A stretch of DNA of 64,000 nt from a virus. The stretch covers positions 1-64,000 of IMG/VR virus record IMGVR_UViG_3300045256_000294; one strand, written 5' to 3'. Positions within the stretch are counted from its first letter, which is position 1. Every line of letters begins with the position of its first letter. Below, piece after piece: positions 1 to 11,785 of this stretch. Below the pieces are notes generated by a model. That model had not been told where the DNA came from. It ran no database searches and saw only the letters and a program-made list of their open reading frames with translations. A program made the translations under genes and the position numbers.

Positions 1-16
1 GAGCACGTGTGGCCAT

Positions 17-412
17 TTAATCCATGAGAGTTTGGGCGATTTTCTTGACTTCTTCATTGACGACGAAAAGGGTCTTATCGTAAATTTGCACACCGTCTTT
101 CCAAACGCGACCTTTATCACTAACAAACGCAGCGTTCCCAGCGGCGTTCTCAACGAAGTTGATAAGACTTTCGCGAAGTTCAGGAGGAAGTGGTTTCCCC
201 TGGTCTTCTAACCGCCCCATGAACACGAAATCTTCTAGGACCTCGGCGGCCACAGGGCGACCTTCTTCAATGCGGCACAGCACCATCCAGTTCTGTGGTG
301 TATGCTGGATCGTGAGGCCGACTTGGTTGAACGTCTTTTCTAGAGCGTAGAGTGTCCGAAAGTTTGGACAACCTTGAAGTTTACCAACGACCACAGGAAG
401 ATTTGGGTTCAC
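17..412 (-). CDS. hypothetical phage protein
   Basis: 131-aa ORF, GTG start with AAGGAGG Shine-Dalgarno, directly downstream of the tail sheath gene. Confidence 0.75.
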   Translation of the reverse strand: MNPNLPVVVGKLQGCPNFRTLYALEKTFNQVGLTIQHTPQNWMVLCRIEEGRPVAAEVLEDFVFMGRLEDQGKPLPPELRESLINFVENAAGNAAFVSDKGRVWKDGVQIYDKTLFVVNEEVKKIAQTLMD

Positions 413-5122: not shown

Positions 5123-5744
5123 GGTAACCTCCCATCTCCGGCCGCGGCTCCTCGGCCATCGGAGCCGCATCTGCCGGGCGAACCGTAATGTCGGCCGTCA
5201 GTAGGGTCACTTGGCAGGTAAAGTACAACCAGTGGTACCGGAAATTCCCGGACGGGGTAGCGTTCGTTACCCGGTAGTACCGCGGGTCCAAACCCTGAGT
5301 CGCCGCGTTGTACGGCACCCGGACCAGATCACCCACCCGCAACATCCGGTCGTTGAATTGGCGATATAGCTGGTGGTGGCTGAAGACGATCTCCATCTTG
5401 TTTTCGGAGTCGGCACCCCACTTTTTGAGTTCCAGTTCGAGCGGCTGCGGCTTGAAGTACGCCTTCATTGGCACCGGATTCCAATAGGTCGGGTCCGGGT
5501 CAGCGTCGAACACCTTGTCGTAGTCCTGGTTGTCGGTGCGGGCGTAAACGACGACCTCGGCCCCGGAGATATTAATGATTTCGTCAGCCTTCTTACGGGC
5601 CTCCTTCAGATCGTTGCTTTCCGGGTCATGTAGGGCGACGGGGGTGTGCCGCTGCTCGGCTTCACTCCGGAAATCCGGGTGAATGTTATCGAACAGGTCC
5701 CCACCAGATTGACCGGTATCCACACCAAATCGATAAACAGGCAC
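5109..5744 (-). CDS. neck / head closure protein (T4 gp14-like)
   Basis: GTG start with AAGGAGG; E.I.ISGAEVVVY, D.VFDAD, ELKKWG, GDLVRVPY motifs; structural context. Confidence 0.7.
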   Translation of the reverse strand: MPVYRFGVDTGQSGGDLFDNIHPDFRSEAEQRHTPVALHDPESNDLKEARKKADEIINISGAEVVVYARTDNQDYDKVFDADPDPTYWNPVPMKAYFKPQPLELELKKWGADSENKMEIVFSHHQLYRQFNDRMLRVGDLVRVPYNAATQGLDPRYYRVTNATPSGNFRYHWLYFTCQVTLLTADITVRPADAAPMAEEPRPEMGGYRESL

Positions 5745-5745
5745 C

Positions 5746-6339
5746 TCAGACCTCCTTCGCGAATATCTTGACCTGATGGCAGTTCGCACAAAGTAGTTGG
5801 ATACCAGTAGCATCCCGGATGTGCCCCTTATACCGGAGACGCATCTGGCGGTTCCTGTGTCGCATCCACCCATCGTTCTCCACGTGGTCAAACTGAAGAA
5901 CCGCCTCGTCCGCCTCCCCACAACCAGTACAGCACCCACCGCATTTGGCGATCGCAGCTAACCGCAAGCTCTCCACTTCCTCAGACCGGCTAGCTTTGTC
6001 GTTCCTTTTCCGCCAGTTGCAATTAGCACAGAGAAGTTGGTAACCTTCCGGGTTAGCCAGGATTTTCAAGTACAATTGTCGGCACGACAACGACTTCCTC
6101 TCCGCGGCACCGTCGTCGTGCCTGTGATCGACTTGGAGCATAGCCGAGTTCGTCTGTCCGCACCGGCATTGGTTCCCAAGAATGGTCAGCACCCGCACCC
6201 GCAGATTGGCGATATATTTCCGCTCGCGGGCAGCCAAGACAGCCCTCCCTTCCGGGGTGGCCCGAAGGCTAGCCATTTTCTCTTTCGCTGCGGTGCGGTA
6301 AATCTCAGCTTTAGCGGCGTATTTGGCGACGATAGGCAT
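5746..6339 (-). CDS. free-standing HNH homing endonuclease (tandem HNH domains)
   Basis: Two C..C...LQ.DH..DG...QLLCANC repeats. Confidence 0.85.
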   Translation of the reverse strand: MPIVAKYAAKAEIYRTAAKEKMASLRATPEGRAVLAARERKYIANLRVRVLTILGNQCRCGQTNSAMLQVDHRHDDGAAERKSLSCRQLYLKILANPEGYQLLCANCNWRKRNDKASRSEEVESLRLAAIAKCGGCCTGCGEADEAVLQFDHVENDGWMRHRNRQMRLRYKGHIRDATGIQLLCANCHQVKIFAKEV

Positions 6340-6365
6340 ATAGTCCCCTCCACTGTATTTTTGGC

Positions 6366-6644
6366 ATGATGAGGAACGACATCCCAGATGCGATCGCCGG
6401 CTTCTTACGTGAGTAAAGCTTCGATGTTCACTACGAGACTCCCGGTGGTACCATCACGGTCGATCCGTTTGGGAAACACTATATCAACATCCTTGTCTGG
6501 CACAATCCCACGCTGTCTGTCAGCGTTAACCCCTCCGGTGTCGGCTACTCGATCGCCTCGATCGATATGAACGACCCGAACCCACTCGACCAACTAGCCA
6601 CTGCCATAAGAACGTGGAAGGAGAAGAACAACGGGCTAGGCTAA
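6366..6644 (+). pseudogene. small D-L/M-x-D/N-P family protein with internal TAA
   Basis: Manual translation MMRNDIPDAIAGFLRE*SFDVHY...IDMNDPNPLDQLATAIR; in-frame TAA at 6414-6416. Confidence 0.6.
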
Positions 6645-7008
6645 CGGCTACATTACTCAACTGCAAAGCGGTGCCACAGTGCAGTGCCGCCCCCGCGGCG
6701 AAGATCTGAAAATCCTGGAGCGGGTCCCGGTCTGGAGGATGTGTGCGTTAGCCGGAATGGGCCACATACACGTCTACTCTTACCACAGCAAGAACATATG
6801 GGGCGAGAAAGACCACCGTAGCATTCCGGGAGTCCAACCGAAGAGTTTCTTACTAGAGCGACGGGAGCTTATTGAACGAAGCCTTGTCGCCGCCGGTCTG
6901 GAAGGTCCGTTCCACGTAACCGGCAGCGACGGTTTGGCTTTCACTTCTTCTTGCGGCGTTGATTTGGCCAGCCTTCGTACCAGAACTGCTTCGGTATCTC
7001 GTTCATGA
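6643..7008 (+). pseudogene. C-terminal remnant of a glycosyltransferase-like gene
   Basis: RGED and HVYSYHSKNIW motifs resemble GT2 C-termini; no N-terminal part or clear start. Confidence 0.35.
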
Positions 7009-7183
7009 GTTCCACGCAGTCAATGCACAGTACGATATTCTTGATGTCTTCCAAAGTTCCATCGGGTCCTATTGGCACTCGCCCGGTCCCAACTGGAGAT
7101 GTTTCGCAAGGTTTCTCACATCGGCAGCATGTGCTGTGGATAGCGATTTCCGGCTTGGCCGGATAGTTCACTTCAAAGCCCAT
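6941..7183 (-). CDS. small Zn-binding hypothetical protein
   Basis: 80 aa with CCRC and LCIDC; start abuts the upstream stop. Confidence 0.6.
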   Translation of the reverse strand: MGFEVNYPAKPEIAIHSTCCRCEKPCETSPVGTGRVPIGPDGTLEDIKNIVLCIDCVELMNEIPKQFWYEGWPNQRRKKK

Positions 7184-7758
7184 TAGCCGACCCCACCGGG
7201 GAAATCACCGCCTTGCCAGCTAGGAAGCGGAGGCAACACACCACCCGCTGCAGGGAATGACCCTTCGGGCTTATAGGGGTCTTGTTCTGGTGGCTCTGCT
7301 AGCTGGAAGTCTGGGTGAGGACAGTAGCCCATCCCGTTGCTGTCGCAGATGTCGAACTTCTCCTCAACAGGAAGATCGTCACTCGCTAGGCTCTTCAGGA
7401 TCTTATAGTAGTCCTCATAGCTCTGACAGGGGCAGTCCGGCTTTAGCGGTGGCAGGACGAACCACTTCTGGCGGAAACCACCGCGATTGAAGTTGGCCCC
7501 AAGCTTCACGAACGAGCCTGGAATCGCAGCAAGAGCAACTTGCAGATCGACCAACGGATTACCGATACCGTGCTTGGCAAGGTACGCACCCAGAGTACGC
7601 GAGGACAGAGCACTGGTCGGCTCATAACCAGGGACCAGAATCTTGTTGCCGGGCATGACTTCCAATTGCCAGGCGATCGTGTGCGTCCAAGTTGACGGAC
7701 TAGCGATCATGGTCCACCTGAATACTGATAATATAACTTCACCACAACCACCGTACAT
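7183..7758 (-). CDS. hypothetical protein (start uncertain, possibly ~7656)
   Basis: 191-aa ORF in the neck operon. Confidence 0.6.
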   Translation of the reverse strand: MYGGCGEVILSVFRWTMIASPSTWTHTIAWQLEVMPGNKILVPGYEPTSALSSRTLGAYLAKHGIGNPLVDLQVALAAIPGSFVKLGANFNRGGFRQKWFVLPPLKPDCPCQSYEDYYKILKSLASDDLPVEEKFDICDSNGMGYCPHPDFQLAEPPEQDPYKPEGSFPAAGGVLPPLPSWQGGDFPGGVG

Positions 7759-7991
7759 CCAGTCATGCGAATCCGACTTCTAGCCGACTCGGGCGTTCGG
7801 TTTGGTCGTGGATTAATAACAATTCCATATCGACGCAAGGCCGACGTAACGGCTTTCTTTCCGCAACCTATCAATTTCGCAATTTGGCGAGTAGTCAGCC
7901 CCTCAACTTCATAATGATCTCGAAGCCAAGCTTCATTCATCAAAAAGTCAGCAGCCGGCCCAACTTGCTGTCGATAATTGGTTGTTAGCAT
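7707..7991 (-). CDS. HTH DNA-binding fragment, probable homing endonuclease remnant
   Basis: WLRDHYEVEGLTTRQIAKLIGCG..V...LRRYGI helix-turn-helix in AT-richer DNA. Confidence 0.55.
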   Translation of the reverse strand: MLTTNYRQQVGPAADFLMNEAWLRDHYEVEGLTTRQIAKLIGCGKKAVTSALRRYGIVINPRPNRTPESARSRIRMTGCTVVVVKLYYQYSGGP

Positions 7992-8767
7992 ACAACATCT
8001 TTAAATGAACCGATAAGCGTTCCCAATACCGGAAGCAGCCAATTCCACGTCCAGAAACCCATTGGTTCACCCAAGTTGATGGCCTGCTCTAAGATTTTCT
8101 CTTTGGCCGTCTCACCTTCCTGAACCAGATCCGAACCGTCGTAACTGATGCTACCACCGTCGGGGGTTGGCATACCGGAGATCTTACGGCGAGAGTTGCC
8201 GACCATGATCCGAGCTTCAGCTAGCATCAGATCATAGCACAATTGACGAGCCTGGGGGCTGCGAAAATGGGTCACGACCGGGATGTAGAGGACCGTAACC
8301 GGGAACGCACCCTTGGGAGTTGGATAGAGACGGATCTTTTGATCCTTGGCACTCAGAGAATCACCTTCAACGTCAGAATTGCCTTCGTTGATGACCTCCC
8401 AATGCCCCTCGGTGCCAAGGATCTTCTGGCTGAACTTGCGGTAGGCCGCGAGCAGGTGGTAGTCCAGCAGAATGTTCTGGATGCCGGAGATGTTCCCAAC
8501 GTTGCTGCCAATGGATTTTTTAATTCCAATTCTTTTCCGCACATCTTTGAAAATGTCGTTTGTCTGGTTATAACTATAACCAAAATCAGACAAGCGTTTA
8601 ATAAATTGCGGCCCGTGGTCGGCGTCCCCAGCTTCGATGTGGGCGATTTCGTGGGCGATGTCTTTGGCGGTAGCCGATTCAACAAATTTATTAGATATAA
8701 AAATTTCTGCGGTTTCAACATCGCAAAATGCCCGCACATGAGCAAATGGAAGCACTTTGATAATCAT
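7985..8767 (-). CDS. fusion: SprT-like HExxH metalloprotease domain (aa 1-88) + C-terminal half of gp13-like neck protein
   Basis: AFCD..IFIS..HEIAH...DHGPQF, then NVGNISGIQNILL...KIRLYPTP...LAEARIMVG..R.K...PDGG.ISYDGSDLVQEG...GEPMGF (gp13-like C-terminus). Confidence 0.8.
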   Translation of the reverse strand: MIIKVLPFAHVRAFCDVETAEIFISNKFVESATAKDIAHEIAHIEAGDADHGPQFIKRLSDFGYSYNQTNDIFKDVRKRIGIKKSIGSNVGNISGIQNILLDYHLLAAYRKFSQKILGTEGHWEVINEGNSDVEGDSLSAKDQKIRLYPTPKGAFPVTVLYIPVVTHFRSPQARQLCYDLMLAEARIMVGNSRRKISGMPTPDGGSISYDGSDLVQEGETAKEKILEQAINLGEPMGFWTWNWLLPVLGTLIGSFKDVVC

Positions 8768-9804
8768 CGCACATACCTCACCGAGTACAAATCACTCCCC
8801 AACTTCCGTGGCGGCGTGGCCCGCCACTTCCCAAGCGTAAAGCCAACAGCTTCATTTATAGTTTTGAAATAATAGGTAACTTGTGTGGCAGCGGCTTTGG
8901 GGGGCGGCCACCGAAATTCAACAGCCTCGGTACGCCAGCCGGTTTTAAGTAAATCCATCCCAGCGGATAGCTCATCAGAACTGGATTTACGAAAGATCAC
9001 CCCGGCCTCTTCAGCTCGCCGGCTGGCATAAATCCGTTTATCATCTGGCACAAGAACTCTATTAGGCTTAACCTCGATCCATTCTATCTTGTCCGGCCAA
9101 ACCACTGTAAAATCTATGATATAAAGGCGCTGTTTGCCGGTTAACATGTCAACATAAGGCACCCACATCTCCTCATAATACCACTCCAACCCAAGCTTAT
9201 CAAGCAACATCGCATAAGATAATTCATGCAGGGATCGAAATAAATATTTCGTACCGTTGACGGCTGTATACTCAGCTCTAATAGTCGATCGTCTCGTCTT
9301 CTCCAGTACGTCTGGCCGTTGGGCGGGTGCCAGCACTCCGTGCAAACGCAGATGGCGGGCCTGCATGGACTTTGATATCTGCTGTCTGGTTTTCTTCAGT
9401 CCCAACCGCTTGATGTGCTTCCGAATAACATTATAATGAACTGGTGGTTCTATAGTTTCAGCTATGGTCTTACTATCGAGATTCTGTTCAATAAAAAGTT
9501 TTTCTAGCTCGGCATCAGATAACACATATTTTCGATTGGGGTGTTTTGAACGAGCCAGCGGAGTATGATTATGGATGGAGGTGTCAACGCCGGCTATGCG
9601 TAGTCTTCTTTTGACAGTAGCCACTGAACAATTAAACTCGGCTGCACAGTCCGACAAAGTATGCGTTGCGAAGAACTGGATCAGTTTGGTGATATTTAAC
9701 TCTTTCTTATTAGCGATCACCCTGGGCGTGAATTTACCTGGATAGAAATCTGGTCGGTCCTTATGTTTAATGGATGAGGACCGGTTCCCCTTCCGTGCAG
9801 CCAT
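8764..9804 (-). CDS. free-standing PD-(D/E)xK (TnsA/gp4-like) endonuclease with HTH domains
   Basis: FRSLHE, WYYE..VPY, YIIDF, IEVKP motifs; AT-rich; overlaps both neck gene halves. Confidence 0.85.
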   Translation of the reverse strand: MAARKGNRSSSIKHKDRPDFYPGKFTPRVIANKKELNITKLIQFFATHTLSDCAAEFNCSVATVKRRLRIAGVDTSIHNHTPLARSKHPNRKYVLSDAELEKLFIEQNLDSKTIAETIEPPVHYNVIRKHIKRLGLKKTRQQISKSMQARHLRLHGVLAPAQRPDVLEKTRRSTIRAEYTAVNGTKYLFRSLHELSYAMLLDKLGLEWYYEEMWVPYVDMLTGKQRLYIIDFTVVWPDKIEWIEVKPNRVLVPDDKRIYASRRAEEAGVIFRKSSSDELSAGMDLLKTGWRTEAVEFRWPPPKAAATQVTYYFKTINEAVGFTLGKWRATPPRKLGSDLYSVRYVR

Positions 9805-10477
9805 AATAACACCCGGCGTTAAGAGCTCTGACTGAGATCGCGTCACGTGCCGCGTAGGTTTCGACGTTATGTACTGTCGGCGCGTTGTTAATGCCCTGCA
9901 ACTGCTCACCGACAACAATTTCCCCAAATTCACGCCATTTAGCACCTGGCACGGCCAGTACATGGTTGGTGGTTCCATCAACCACACCGTTGTCATAATA
10001 GATTCTAACTTTAGGTAGATCGCGGTCCACAACACGATTAACTATTTTTAATTTGCGATTACCATAGGGCGTTTTAGCTTTCCATTCAGCTTTCCACTCA
10101 CCAAGCGGTTGCAACTTACCATCTTTATCCAAGATATGAAAATTAGGGGCTAAGCAGAAGAGGAATGACTCGGCACCGAACACGTCGTCAATGCGGGTGG
10201 TCACCGGGTCCCAATTAACCTGCTGGACCCAATAAGCATCCTTGGGCAGCGGATAAGTAGACTTGAGGGGCTGAGTCCAGAACACCCCCAGCTTCTGCTC
10301 CCGCGGGAAATATTGTGCGATGAAGTCGCCGGCTACTCGCCACACAGTCTCCCACTGGTCCTCCTTGAGTTCTACGTCCACGGTCGGGTAGCCGAGTTTG
10401 GACAGGACATACTTCTTCATGGGCTCGGAACGAACCTTCATGATGCTCGGCAAGTCAGCCGGACCCATGATCGCCAT
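9767..10477 (-). CDS. N-terminal half of gp13-like neck protein fused to a Hint domain
   Basis: KKYVLSKLGYPTVDVELKEDQ (gp13-like N-terminus), then CLAPNFHILDKDG...TTNH...GEPVLIH*. Confidence 0.85.
   Translation of the reverse strand: MAIMGPADLPSIMKVRSEPMKKYVLSKLGYPTVDVELKEDQWETVWRVAGDFIAQYFPREQKLGVFWTQPLKSTYPLPKDAYWVQQVNWDPVTTRIDDVFGAESFLFCLAPNFHILDKDGKLQPLGEWKAEWKAKTPYGNRKLKIVNRVVDRDLPKVRIYYDNGVVDGTTNHVLAVPGAKWREFGEIVVGEQLQGINNAPTVHNVETYAARDAISVRALNAGCYYGCTEGEPVLIH
9770..10156 (-). mobile_element. Hint/intein-like domain (129 aa) ending in His-stop
   Basis: Cys1 block A, TxxH block B (TTNH), W...GEI.VGE.L, C-terminal VLIH lacking Asn. Confidence 0.8.
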
Positions 10478-10501
10478 GTGCCGTTCCTCCCTACACCCGC
10501 A

Positions 10502-11041
10502 TTACGATTGCGGGAAATGGTAACCCTTGTCGCCGTAAATAACGCCAGCGTAGTCGAGCCGGAACACCTCGTAGACGGCACCATCCGGTAACCCAGAAGC
10601 CAGGGCTGCCTCGATCGCCGTCTTCAGAGCCCGAACTTCAGTATTGATCGTCGAGGTCGGACCAGCGGTGTTGGAGTGAGCCACCGACCCCTCATAGATC
10701 TCACCGCCAGAAAAACGCTTGATCTCAGCATGGGTCGGTGTGTTGTTGCCGGACACTTCATAAAAGCCGGTCAGCATCAGTTGGGCCGGAGCGGCACCGA
10801 TCTGAGGCTTGCAAGCGGCGGCGTTGGCGAAACCGCCTAACCCGCCCCTCCGGTTGTAGTCGCCCATGCTTTGAGTAACACTGCCGCCCGGAGTAGCCGC
10901 CTGAACGCCAGAGATGTTGGTGATGACCTCATAAGCCAGTACCGCCAGCTTCTGGAGGTCACGGATGTACTCGAACCGCTTTCCGTTCGCCCGGTCGGGG
11001 ACGACACGAATGTGGACGGTGAATGGAACTTGCTTCGACAT
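10502..11041 (-). CDS. hypothetical (probable virion) protein
   Basis: ATG with GGAGG SD; structural operon context. Confidence 0.7.
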   Translation of the reverse strand: MSKQVPFTVHIRVVPDRANGKRFEYIRDLQKLAVLAYEVITNISGVQAATPGGSVTQSMGDYNRRGGLGGFANAAACKPQIGAAPAQLMLTGFYEVSGNNTPTHAEIKRFSGGEIYEGSVAHSNTAGPTSTINTEVRALKTAIEAALASGLPDGAVYEVFRLDYAGVIYGDKGYHFPQS

Positions 11042-11063
11042 TGGTAACCTCCCTAGTAACTTT

Positions 11064-11492
11064 TCAGGACACAGGAATCTCGTCGTGCGGCAGATACTGG
11101 ATTGGGTAGCGAATGCCCTCACCGTCGAACATTCCCTCGTGCACCGCCAGCGACGACTCGAACAGGAAGGTCACCCGATGGTCGTCGGGTTCCTTAGTCC
11201 GCCAGCCGACAATGTGGATCACCTCCACCTTGCCGTACCCCGATCGCATGGCGGTCCGCCGCCGGTAAATCGGGTACTGACCCTTCTCATATTCCACTTC
11301 AACCAGTTTCCGGCCATCCTTGTGATAGAGAGCCAGAGTTTTTAGCTTAGAGTAGTCGATCTCCTGGCTGTTGTGCTCCCGCCCATCTTCATACTGGTTG
11401 AACCTGCTACCATCCTGGAGAGTGGCTACCCAGAAAACAGTAGCACCATCGTTGATGGCGGTAGCGTGGCTGAGAGAGTCGAGATCGGTCAT
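11064..11492 (-). CDS. hypothetical protein
   Basis: 142-aa ORF coupled to the upstream gene. Confidence 0.7.
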   Translation of the reverse strand: MTDLDSLSHATAINDGATVFWVATLQDGSRFNQYEDGREHNSQEIDYSKLKTLALYHKDGRKLVEVEYEKGQYPIYRRRTAMRSGYGKVEVIHIVGWRTKEPDDHRVTFLFESSLAVHEGMFDGEGIRYPIQYLPHDEIPVS

Positions 11493-11785
11493 AGGACTAG
11501 CTCATCGAGTTCGGTGAAGGATTCCTTCTCAGCGCGGCTATTTAGCAGAGCCCTGAACTCCTCTTCATTGAGGACATTCGCCGGGTGTGCCCACACACAA
11601 AAGCCCTTCTTGCCGCGGCCGTCGAGATCCAGGTGAGCGAGATCCTTGGGAAGTTCGACATCGAACTCCAGCCCCAGAATCTTGCCCGGCTCAGTGGTGA
11701 TACACACCAGGGTACCCAGGAGCGGCTGGGGCATCTGGCGAGCCTTGTACCACAGCTTGTCGCCCTTCTTGAATTGCTTCGGCAT
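11489..11785 (-). CDS. small SH3-like hypothetical protein
   Basis: FKKGDK, GLEFD, DLDGRGKKGFCVW pattern. Confidence 0.65.
   Translation of the reverse strand: MPKQFKKGDKLWYKARQMPQPLLGTLVCITTEPGKILGLEFDVELPKDLAHLDLDGRGKKGFCVWAHPANVLNEEEFRALLNSRAEKESFTELDELVL

Follow-up and report, generated by a model that had tools for sequence, protein, structure and literature searches.

The 64,000-nucleotide stretch of viral DNA analysed here (the window: positions 1 to 64,000 of IMG/VR record IMGVR_UViG_3300045256_000294) contains a gene for a neck protein, apparently of the gp13 type, that is divided by a homing cassette. The minus strand between 7985 and 10477 is filled by three open reading frames (ORFs A, B and C), and all of the features listed below lie on it. 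The first encodes the N-terminal half of the neck protein followed by a Hint domain, the second a homing-type nuclease, and the third the C-terminal half of the neck protein behind a leader that resembles a minimal zinc protease. The nuclease varies from relative to relative; the Hint and the leader are constant. With a probability that we place at about 0.4, these two domains act together on the broken protein: the protease would unmask an N-terminal Asn, which would then capture the thioester formed by the Hint and so join the two chains. Lengths are given in amino acids (aa).

ORF A: 9767..10477, minus strand; 236 aa, neck N-half residues 1-107 and then a 129-aa domain.
Neck N-half: 10157..10477, minus strand; gp13-type (head-completion adaptor), residues 1-107, ending ...GAESFLF, with 84% identity to residues 1-109 of P0055, an intact homologue.
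Complete Hint domain: 9770..10156, minus strand; 129 aa, in frame with the N-half, with Cys1, TTNH as its block B and His as its last residue.
ORF B: 8764..9804, minus strand; free-standing homing-type nuclease gene, 346 aa from ATG 9804, the frame being open from 10035.
ORF C: 7985..8767, minus strand; 260 aa, leader plus neck C-half.
Putative zinc-protease leader, minigluzincin-like: 8504..8767, minus strand; 88 aa, fused in frame to the C-half, HEIAH-x7-H then GPQF, ending KKSIGS.
Neck C-half: 7985..8503, minus strand; 172 aa plus stop, its first residue the invariant Asn of NVGNISG, with 87% identity to P0055 residues 105-260.

The insert proper (8504-10156, 1653 nt) is fully coding, its three ORFs overlapping or coupled: ORF B shares 38 nt with ORF A, and the ATGA at 8767-8764 contains both its stop and the start of ORF C. 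The conserved part of ORF B begins at ATG 9804, which is its likely start. The GC content of the insert is 0.461, compared with 0.570 for the N-half, 0.528 for the C-half and 0.556 for the window. The Hint sequence runs CLAPNF...TTNH...VLIH and then into a TAA stop at 9769-9767, with no terminal Asn; the region of the third ligand in the leader reads DHGPQF. Reading the ORFs upholds the coordinates and the three-part anatomy that an earlier note on this DNA had assigned to the insert.

In intact homologues (~260 aa), N(V/I)GNISG stands directly after ...ESFLF (alignments A1 and A2), so the insert is flush on both sides, with nothing lost and nothing duplicated; the junction is accordingly FLF-N, with Asn directly following FLF, one of the two forms that the earlier note had considered. 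From 130 relatives, 80 viral loci were retained; the halves are contiguous in 65 of these and split in 14, and one further locus ends before the C-half.

Might the insert be removed from RNA, or passed over in translation (by a group I intron, bypassing or recoding), the in-frame domains being incidental? Endonuclease-bearing group I introns are often found in phage genes, as is generally known. Set against this are the coding capacity of the entire insert, with its overlapping or coupled ORFs, the fact that the Hint is in frame with the N-half and the protease with the C-half, and the conservation of both at the protein level across lineages; nor did a search of both strands of 7000-11500 at E <= 1 find a match to any Rfam family, a group I intron core included. 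We consider removal at this level barely credible.

The Hint domain and the zinc-protease leader

The AlphaFold2 (AF2) model of ORF A has a predicted local distance difference test score (pLDDT) above 90 over residues 108-236, and a Foldseek search with the modelled Hint returns 40 PDB matches at E <= 0.001. The matches listed are inteins, bacterial intein-like (BIL) domains and Hedgehog, with E values of 1.3e-6 for BIL2 (6y75), 4.1e-6 for a BIL domain (2lwy) and 2.4e-5 for Hedgehog (1at0); they cover whole mini-inteins, for example gp41-1, which has the highest TMt (0.81). A profile of 12 Hint domains searched against PDB sequences gives intein/BIL matches at E 5.6e-6 and 2.8e-5 (the latter being 2lwy) and aligns the final His of the Hint with the His of ...VLVH in these sequences. 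Pfam and PHROGs have no family for ORF A, for the isolated Hint or for an intact homologue, so it is by fold and by profile against the PDB that the domain has been identified. What model and profile describe is a Hint fold that is complete in one chain and ends one residue before the canonical Asn. The complete but Asn-less Hint with Cys1 and TTNH, and without an IntC, that the earlier note had read from the letters is thus confirmed by model, Foldseek and profile.

ORF A, used as a query, has 305 protein matches, the best 120 of them listed; the counts given here are for the 100 cluster representatives of N-half+Hint proteins that continue with Hint past the junction. Their Hints begin with Cys (98) or Ser (2), and 99 have the block B motif; 96 terminate in His, 3 in Ser and 1, which is extended, in Gly, and none terminates in Asn. 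In 62 aligned N-half+Hint proteins H172 is invariant, and C108, T169, N171 and H236 are each at least 90% conserved. Across diverged lineages Hint identity falls to 21-30% (alignment A5), and there are at least two subtypes, including the Ser1 forms. The Hint ORF of locus L006 lacks the His-stop and continues for 27 residues further.

That the stop after His might be a sequencing error, a possibility raised by the earlier note, is answered by the 96 relatives that also end in His and by contigs from other sequencing runs, which show no differing letters over the region, including the His-TAA, and no joints. The contigs are weak support: one run (X3) shares its sample with the likely source, and the records and depths of X3 and X4 are identical, so that these may be a single data set filed twice. 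Conservation across clusters, as read from these sequences, is the real argument against an artefact. Two ways of restoring a terminal Asn were considered and rejected. Frameshifting or readthrough at the His-TAA is discounted by the retention of a stop after His in those same 96 relatives and by the next frame being that of the nuclease; the invariant Asn cannot be the intein's own terminal residue, for intact homologues have the same Asn after FLF.

The other constant domain, the leader, is modelled with pLDDT 73-90 over residues 1-70. Its closest structural match is proabylysin (4jiu; Foldseek E 3.2e-3; Z 7.0, root-mean-square deviation 2.3 A, 70 residues aligned within model range 1..89), followed by selecase and jannalysin. 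A profile of 13 leaders gives the same order of relatives: proabylysin (E 1.1e-5), selecase (7.3e-5), projannalysin (5.5e-4) and the WLM protein 5jig (0.015), with the same HExxH-x7-H spacing. The match to SPRTN (6mdw) is much weaker (Foldseek E 0.22), and neither Pfam SprT-like (PF10263; 12.7 bits against a cutoff of 25.6, E 0.11) nor Peptidase_M78 (17.5 bits against a cutoff of 22) reaches its threshold with the leader. Sequence profile and model, then, put the minigluzincins, with proabylysin and selecase, nearest to the leader; the label "SprT-like" that had been given to it names the right superfamily and not the closest family.

With ORF C as the query there are 355 matching proteins, the best 120 of them listed. 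Of the 69 rows in the leader-type set, an intact protein and a fragment of 30 residues are artefacts, which leaves 67 true leaders. A regular expression for the motif gave 62 matches, every one with the HExxH-x7-H spacing. The motif HExxH-x7-H-x(2-3)-[FW] is present in 61 of the 67; a Tyr variant, read from the sequences, accounts for 5 and DExxH for 1. In 50 aligned leader+C-half proteins P7, H39, E40, H43, H51 and N89 are all invariant, so that the absence of a conserved HExxH leader in homologues, which the earlier note had named as fatal to its proposal, is not what is found. N89 is the +1 Asn, invariant also in another alignment (20/20). Ahead of the junction, over the 69 rows, P1 is Ala in 54, P2 is Ala in 60 and P3 is Ile or Leu in 67: P3-P1 is usually I-A-A in relatives and is I-G-S in the window. 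Thirteen diverse leaders taken from loci (18-41% identity, alignment A6) retain E40, H43 and H51 without exception.

Leaders come in short (~65 aa) and long subtypes. Those of the DExxH type (L004, L008/L009, L010/L011 and L031) have longer N-terminal extensions, and their partner Hints carry an extra insert of ~5 residues after block B. L008 has Ser in place of His at the end of its Hint, and a spacer of 6, not 7, before the third His of the leader.

Mobility, distribution and neighbouring genes

The two domains go together: a Hint follows the N-half in 15 of 15 split loci, and an HExxH or DExxH leader precedes the C-half in all 14 that reach it. The cassette family comprises ~100 clusters at 90% identity, in large phages, and in these both extein halves remain open and highly conserved. 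In the split forms the extein residues flanking the insert stay invariant, and the junction is scarless.

Is the split gene still in use? One can imagine a decaying relic, the neck gene being broken or its function being supplied by another gene, and since the window's own record (136,952 bases), which contains only the two halves, is ~38% complete, a second copy elsewhere in this phage is conceivable. A complete 341-kb relative with terminal repeats also has only the two neck halves and one leader, so the split gene must supply the function there, and decay does not agree with the conservation of both halves throughout the ~100 clusters. We regard the relic as highly improbable.

ORF B consists of a helix-turn-helix (HTH) region and a TnsA-like PD-(D/E)xK core (..IIDF..IEVKP..). 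It matches Pfam Tn7_TnsA-like_N (PF08722) at E 3.8e-6, 27.8 bits against a cutoff of 26.5, which bears out the earlier assignment of a PD-(D/E)xK endonuclease to the insert; at other loci the same family scores 30.1 bits (L002), 38.6 bits (L004) and below cutoff (L003). Most split loci have a sense HTH + TnsA-like nuclease between Hint and leader, with homologues of ORF B at the same place in L001-L005, L007-L011 and L031. Elsewhere the space between the halves is taken by a 514-aa multi-HTH protein (L072/L073) or by an antisense 512-aa relative (L067). The occupant thus varies in family, size and strand. Judged from these loci, the nuclease is an exchangeable mobility module, and the two protein domains are the constant parts.

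Three further observations concern this segment. At L006 an unrelated antisense ORF of 649 aa (5709-7658, minus strand), for which Pfam finds only a weak HTH match, replaces the sense nuclease and overlaps the end of the Hint and the start of the leader. The L001 cassette contains an extra 338-aa ORF (6723-7739, plus strand) between nuclease and leader; Pfam finds no family for it, and its ...ITNPPY... motif is one that we take to be reminiscent of DNA N6-adenine methyltransferases. The X3/X4 assembly is broken at 8701-8743 and 9595-9609, with a depth of 6.7 for the 867-nt contig of the nuclease body and of 10.9-11.9 for its flanks; the breaks may reflect a population variant with a different nuclease or none.

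Is the cassette confined to neck genes? The leader profile has exactly one match in the window's own record and in each of five relatives. Of the genomes of these five relatives, G005 has no Hint-profile match but the neck copy; in each of G001-G004 the profile finds between 1 and 5 additional, weaker matches, at E 5.6e-6 to 0.04 and within long ORFs, none of them with a second leader match, and these are presumably ordinary inteins. A phmmer search of the 88-aa leader against 1.84 billion representatives gives 7 matches at E <= 0.001. Four (P0094, P0226, P0227 and P0229) represent the neck C-half, whole or in part; P0225, a leader-like fragment of 79 aa, stops short of the junction; in P0228 (2038 aa) the match is limited to query residues 29-55, the HExxH stretch; and the match to P0230, a repeat protein, is probably spurious. 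The further cassettes for which the earlier note had proposed a search accordingly exist in related neck genes, as the split loci attest; none was found in other genes by this phmmer search, which has single-sequence sensitivity only.

One of these proteins deserves separate mention. P0229 (250 aa) is a leader-bearing C-half that also contains an apparent canonical mini-intein five residues on, at NIGNI|SG, ending ...VVGN and with Ser at +1. Its sequence reads as if an ordinary intein had used the nearest Ser and the Hint-zincin element the Phe|Asn site.

As to the neck gene itself, the gp13 label rests on modest evidence from sequence and models. The N-half aligns with intact homologues (alignment A2) and has a weak, collinear match to T4 gp13. 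A profile of 14 intact homologues searched against the PDB places T4 gp13 first, at E 0.15 and over two collinear stretches; the model of the C-half compares with T4 gp13 (9lu4_D) at Z 5.9, with 28% identity over 65 residues. ORF C has only 6 weak tblastn matches in the "phages" collection, to "head completion adaptor" or "head-adaptor Ad2" proteins of jumbo phages, and neither the DNA of the region nor ORF A has any match in that collection. Genes for a sheath and for a protein like a sheath stabiliser follow downstream of the neck gene. Immediately downstream, its start overlapping the neck C-half's stop, is a 94-aa ORF (7707-7991, minus strand). Its match to HNH endonuclease families is confined to their DNA-binding N-terminal portion (phrog_8446, E 1.2e-5), and it looks like the remnant of a second homing endonuclease. 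L010 has a full ORF of 561 aa at this position.

A possible route back to one chain

What becomes of the two interrupted halves? Canonical (class 1) protein splicing can be set aside at the outset. The Hint fold, Cys or Ser at position 1 and the TxxH of block B are present; a C-terminal Asn (or Gln or Asp), a Cys, Ser or Thr at +1 and an IntC are all missing. With no terminal Asn in any of the 100 Hints, an invariant Asn at +1 and the Hint whole in one chain, canonical splicing is excluded. The earlier contention that standard splicing is impossible here therefore stands; the leader is, by its motif and model, a zincin and not an IntC.

The scheme that we put forward in its place is predicted from anatomy and conservation, and is offered as a tentative one. 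A homing cassette would have entered the only gp13-type neck gene that the phage has, at the exact boundary of ...ESFLF and NVGNISG..., and the two constant modules would be protein domains that repair the damage after translation. 1) The N-half would be made with its complete Hint, whose Cys1 and block B His would convert the peptide bond between F107 and C108 into a thioester. 2) The C-half would be made behind its ~90-aa minigluzincin, which would cut its own tail just before the invariant Asn, leaving a free alpha-amino group at the N-terminus of the C-half; methionine aminopeptidase could not produce this end, Asn not being among the residues that it uncovers. 3) The extein halves would associate and the new N-terminal amine would attack the thioester, generating a native F-N peptide bond and releasing Hint and leader. 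We infer both cleavages, their order and the ligation step. By their conserved residues Hint and leader both look active. If the scheme is right, and the odds are somewhat less than even, the cassette would represent a new kind of protein-splicing element, made of two enzymes on two chains and rebuilding a bond at Phe|Asn that no canonical intein could use.

Precedents exist for parts of this scheme. BIL2 of Tetrahymena forms an isopeptide bond, by way of a Lys amine, at its Hint N-terminal junction (PMC8616854), so that an amine can resolve such a junction. In proabylysin the protein's own C-terminal tail occupies the active-site cleft, at the zinc (PMC5557861). A predicted complex of the Hint (residues 98-236) and the leader (1-100), made from our own alignments, scored 0.00 against a mark of 0.32 and is evidence for neither side.

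Why should a selfish element encode two domains if it need only rid the halves of them? This question bears on the most substantial of the other explanations, a neck protein that simply works as two chains: the zincin would cut itself off, water would resolve the Hint thioester, and the 107-aa and 172-aa products would form a non-covalent pair, the two domains perhaps also keeping the halves soluble or bringing them together before leaving. We regard this as a serious possibility, although one that falls short of even odds. The closest folds to the Hint are of the BIL and Hedgehog types, without Asn and +1 nucleophile, and such domains mainly perform N-terminal cleavage. A nick might be tolerable in a structural protein whose interfaces are large, and purifying selection on catalytic residues would be expected in any case where an uncleaved appendage is harmful. 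Fractured genes without inteins exist (PMC2677866).

Under pure self-removal, however, both domains would be dispensable, since a stop after F107 and a start before the Asn would give nearly the same two chains. The Cys codon at the junction is TGC, one base change from TGA, and a start before the Asn would add only a Met to the C-half. Yet neither shortcut has been seen: the 7 short N-half relatives, which are contig-end fragments or frame-shifted sequences, all stop before ...FLF, and no leader-less C-half occurs among the best 120 of the 355 ORF C relatives or in any of the 15 split loci. That both domains keep co-occurring when self-removal could be replaced by a stop after F107 fits a need for the thioester and for a precisely exposed N-terminal Asn, as ligation by amine capture would have it, and the absence of Hint-less and leader-less split forms fits domains that do more than remove themselves; the scarless junction and the invariant extein residues beside it also speak against two separate chains.

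A different alternative dispenses with processing altogether: Hint and zincin-like domain would stay attached as docking handles or virion decorations, or in a regulatory role, and their catalytic-looking residues would serve binding or metal-dependent folding. Proabylysin has been reported to lack hydrolytic activity (PMC5557861), and a subfamily of leaders has exchanged the first zinc ligand, His, for Asp. Against it stand the invariance of the catalytic Glu and of two His, the presence of Cys/Ser1 and the block B His in 99-100 of 100 Hints, and the bulk of the domains, which would occupy a junction that is continuous in 65 intact loci. We think it improbable. What probability remains beyond ligation, the two-chain protein and the unprocessed one belongs to other readings.

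Ligation by way of the unmasked Asn has difficulties of its own. Attack of an alpha-amine on a thioester is slow in solution when there is no N-terminal Cys, and we know of no natural Hint system that makes a backbone peptide bond by direct amine attack. The Aeh1 NrdA gene, fractured by a homing endonuclease, reportedly works as two chains. The site of leader cleavage is taken from alignment only, and model pLDDT is below 50 at residues 86-99. The DExxH form, with Asp as first zinc ligand, accounts for 4 of the 13 diverse leaders (L004, L008, L010 and L031), and a few Hints deviate in ending with Ser (3/100) or in being extended (1/100). The search for Hint-less forms used a word index and 12 candidates, so that the absence of such forms is weak evidence. 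Finally, PMC2677866 describes an SbcD-like locus at which a homing endonuclease has fractured the gene into two chains without any intein.

A widespread element sited at Phe|Asn keeps an Asn-less Hint and a minimal zinc protease under selection and exchanges its nuclease freely. To our knowledge all known inteins need a terminal Asn (or its equivalent) and Cys, Ser or Thr at +1, which limits where inteins live and where engineered inteins can serve. Were the halves found to be joined, this would be a new splicing chemistry, a natural Cys-free and traceless pair of protein ligases, and a candidate tool for scarless, cysteine-free ligation. Were they not, the cassette would be a selfish element whose two different self-removing domains make a split virion protein tolerable, and a function would have been found for the little-understood minigluzincin fold. 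In short, the conserved pairing of Hint and zincin may restore a single protein from two genes by a route that has not been described.

Comparison with known systems

A Hint + zincin pair in a split gene was not found described in the published literature, although the supplements of PMC2677866 and PMC7824862 might list related loci; the available portions of PMC6892783, PMC7824862, PMC3322345 and PMC5259590 contain nothing relevant to such a pair. The impression of the earlier note that the architecture had not been described survives this search.

Fractured genes offer the nearest parallel in gene arrangement. In these (Dassa et al. 2009, PMC2677866) split-intein halves flank a free-standing homing endonuclease gene, and the likeness extends to several particulars: a phage gene in two ORFs around a free-standing homing-type nuclease, which is precisely the arrangement seen here; a Hint-family domain after the N-extein; overlapping ORFs; and a patchy distribution among close relatives (here 65 intact and 15 split loci). 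The inteins described there consist of an IntN (88-105 aa) and an IntC and keep the terminal Asn and the +1 Cys. In the neck gene, by contrast, a single chain holds the whole Hint and stops at the penultimate His, Asn stands at +1 and a putative zinc protease takes the place of IntC. The words neck, gp13 and protease are missing from the main text of PMC2677866. The SbcD-like locus of the same source is also a phage gene split by a homing nuclease with functional halves; its halves have no autoprocessing domains and carry extra residues at the break, whereas the neck gene would be scarless once its domains were removed.

The closest folds and sequences to the Hint are those of BIL domains, of BIL2 (the Tetrahymena BUBL locus) and of Hedgehog. 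Aeh1 NrdA, as an essential phage gene split by a homing nuclease, is said to function with halves that lack autoprocessing domains; the BIL and Hedgehog types provide the domain without the split gene. They share with the scheme proposed above the resolution of an N-terminal (thio)ester by a nucleophile that is not a +1 Cys, Ser or Thr: Hedgehog resolves its Hint ester with cholesterol. The Hint of the neck gene agrees with this type, which has no C-terminal splice residues, in sequence and in fold; action at the N-terminal junction only is a prediction. No BIL, BIL2 or Hedgehog domain lies in a fractured gene or is paired with a protease-capped partner chain, and none has been proposed to rebuild the backbone peptide bond of a split host protein.

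The leader, for its part, has its counterparts among the minigluzincins (proabylysin, projannalysin and selecase; PDB 4jiu, 4jix and 4qhf), with which it shares a length of ~90-110 aa, the HExxH-x7-H spacing and a three-stranded sheet with active-site helix, the whole being a sheet and two helices. The minigluzincins are free-standing archaeal proteins and differ from the one subfamily of leaders that reads DExxH; here the fold appears as an N-terminal leader on a virion protein and ends at the extein junction. The self-cleaving SprT, Wss1 (WLM) and Spartan proteases have been placed in the minigluzincin family (PMC4559962 and PMC5557861); compared with these zincins, the leader is without DNA-binding or other accessory regions.

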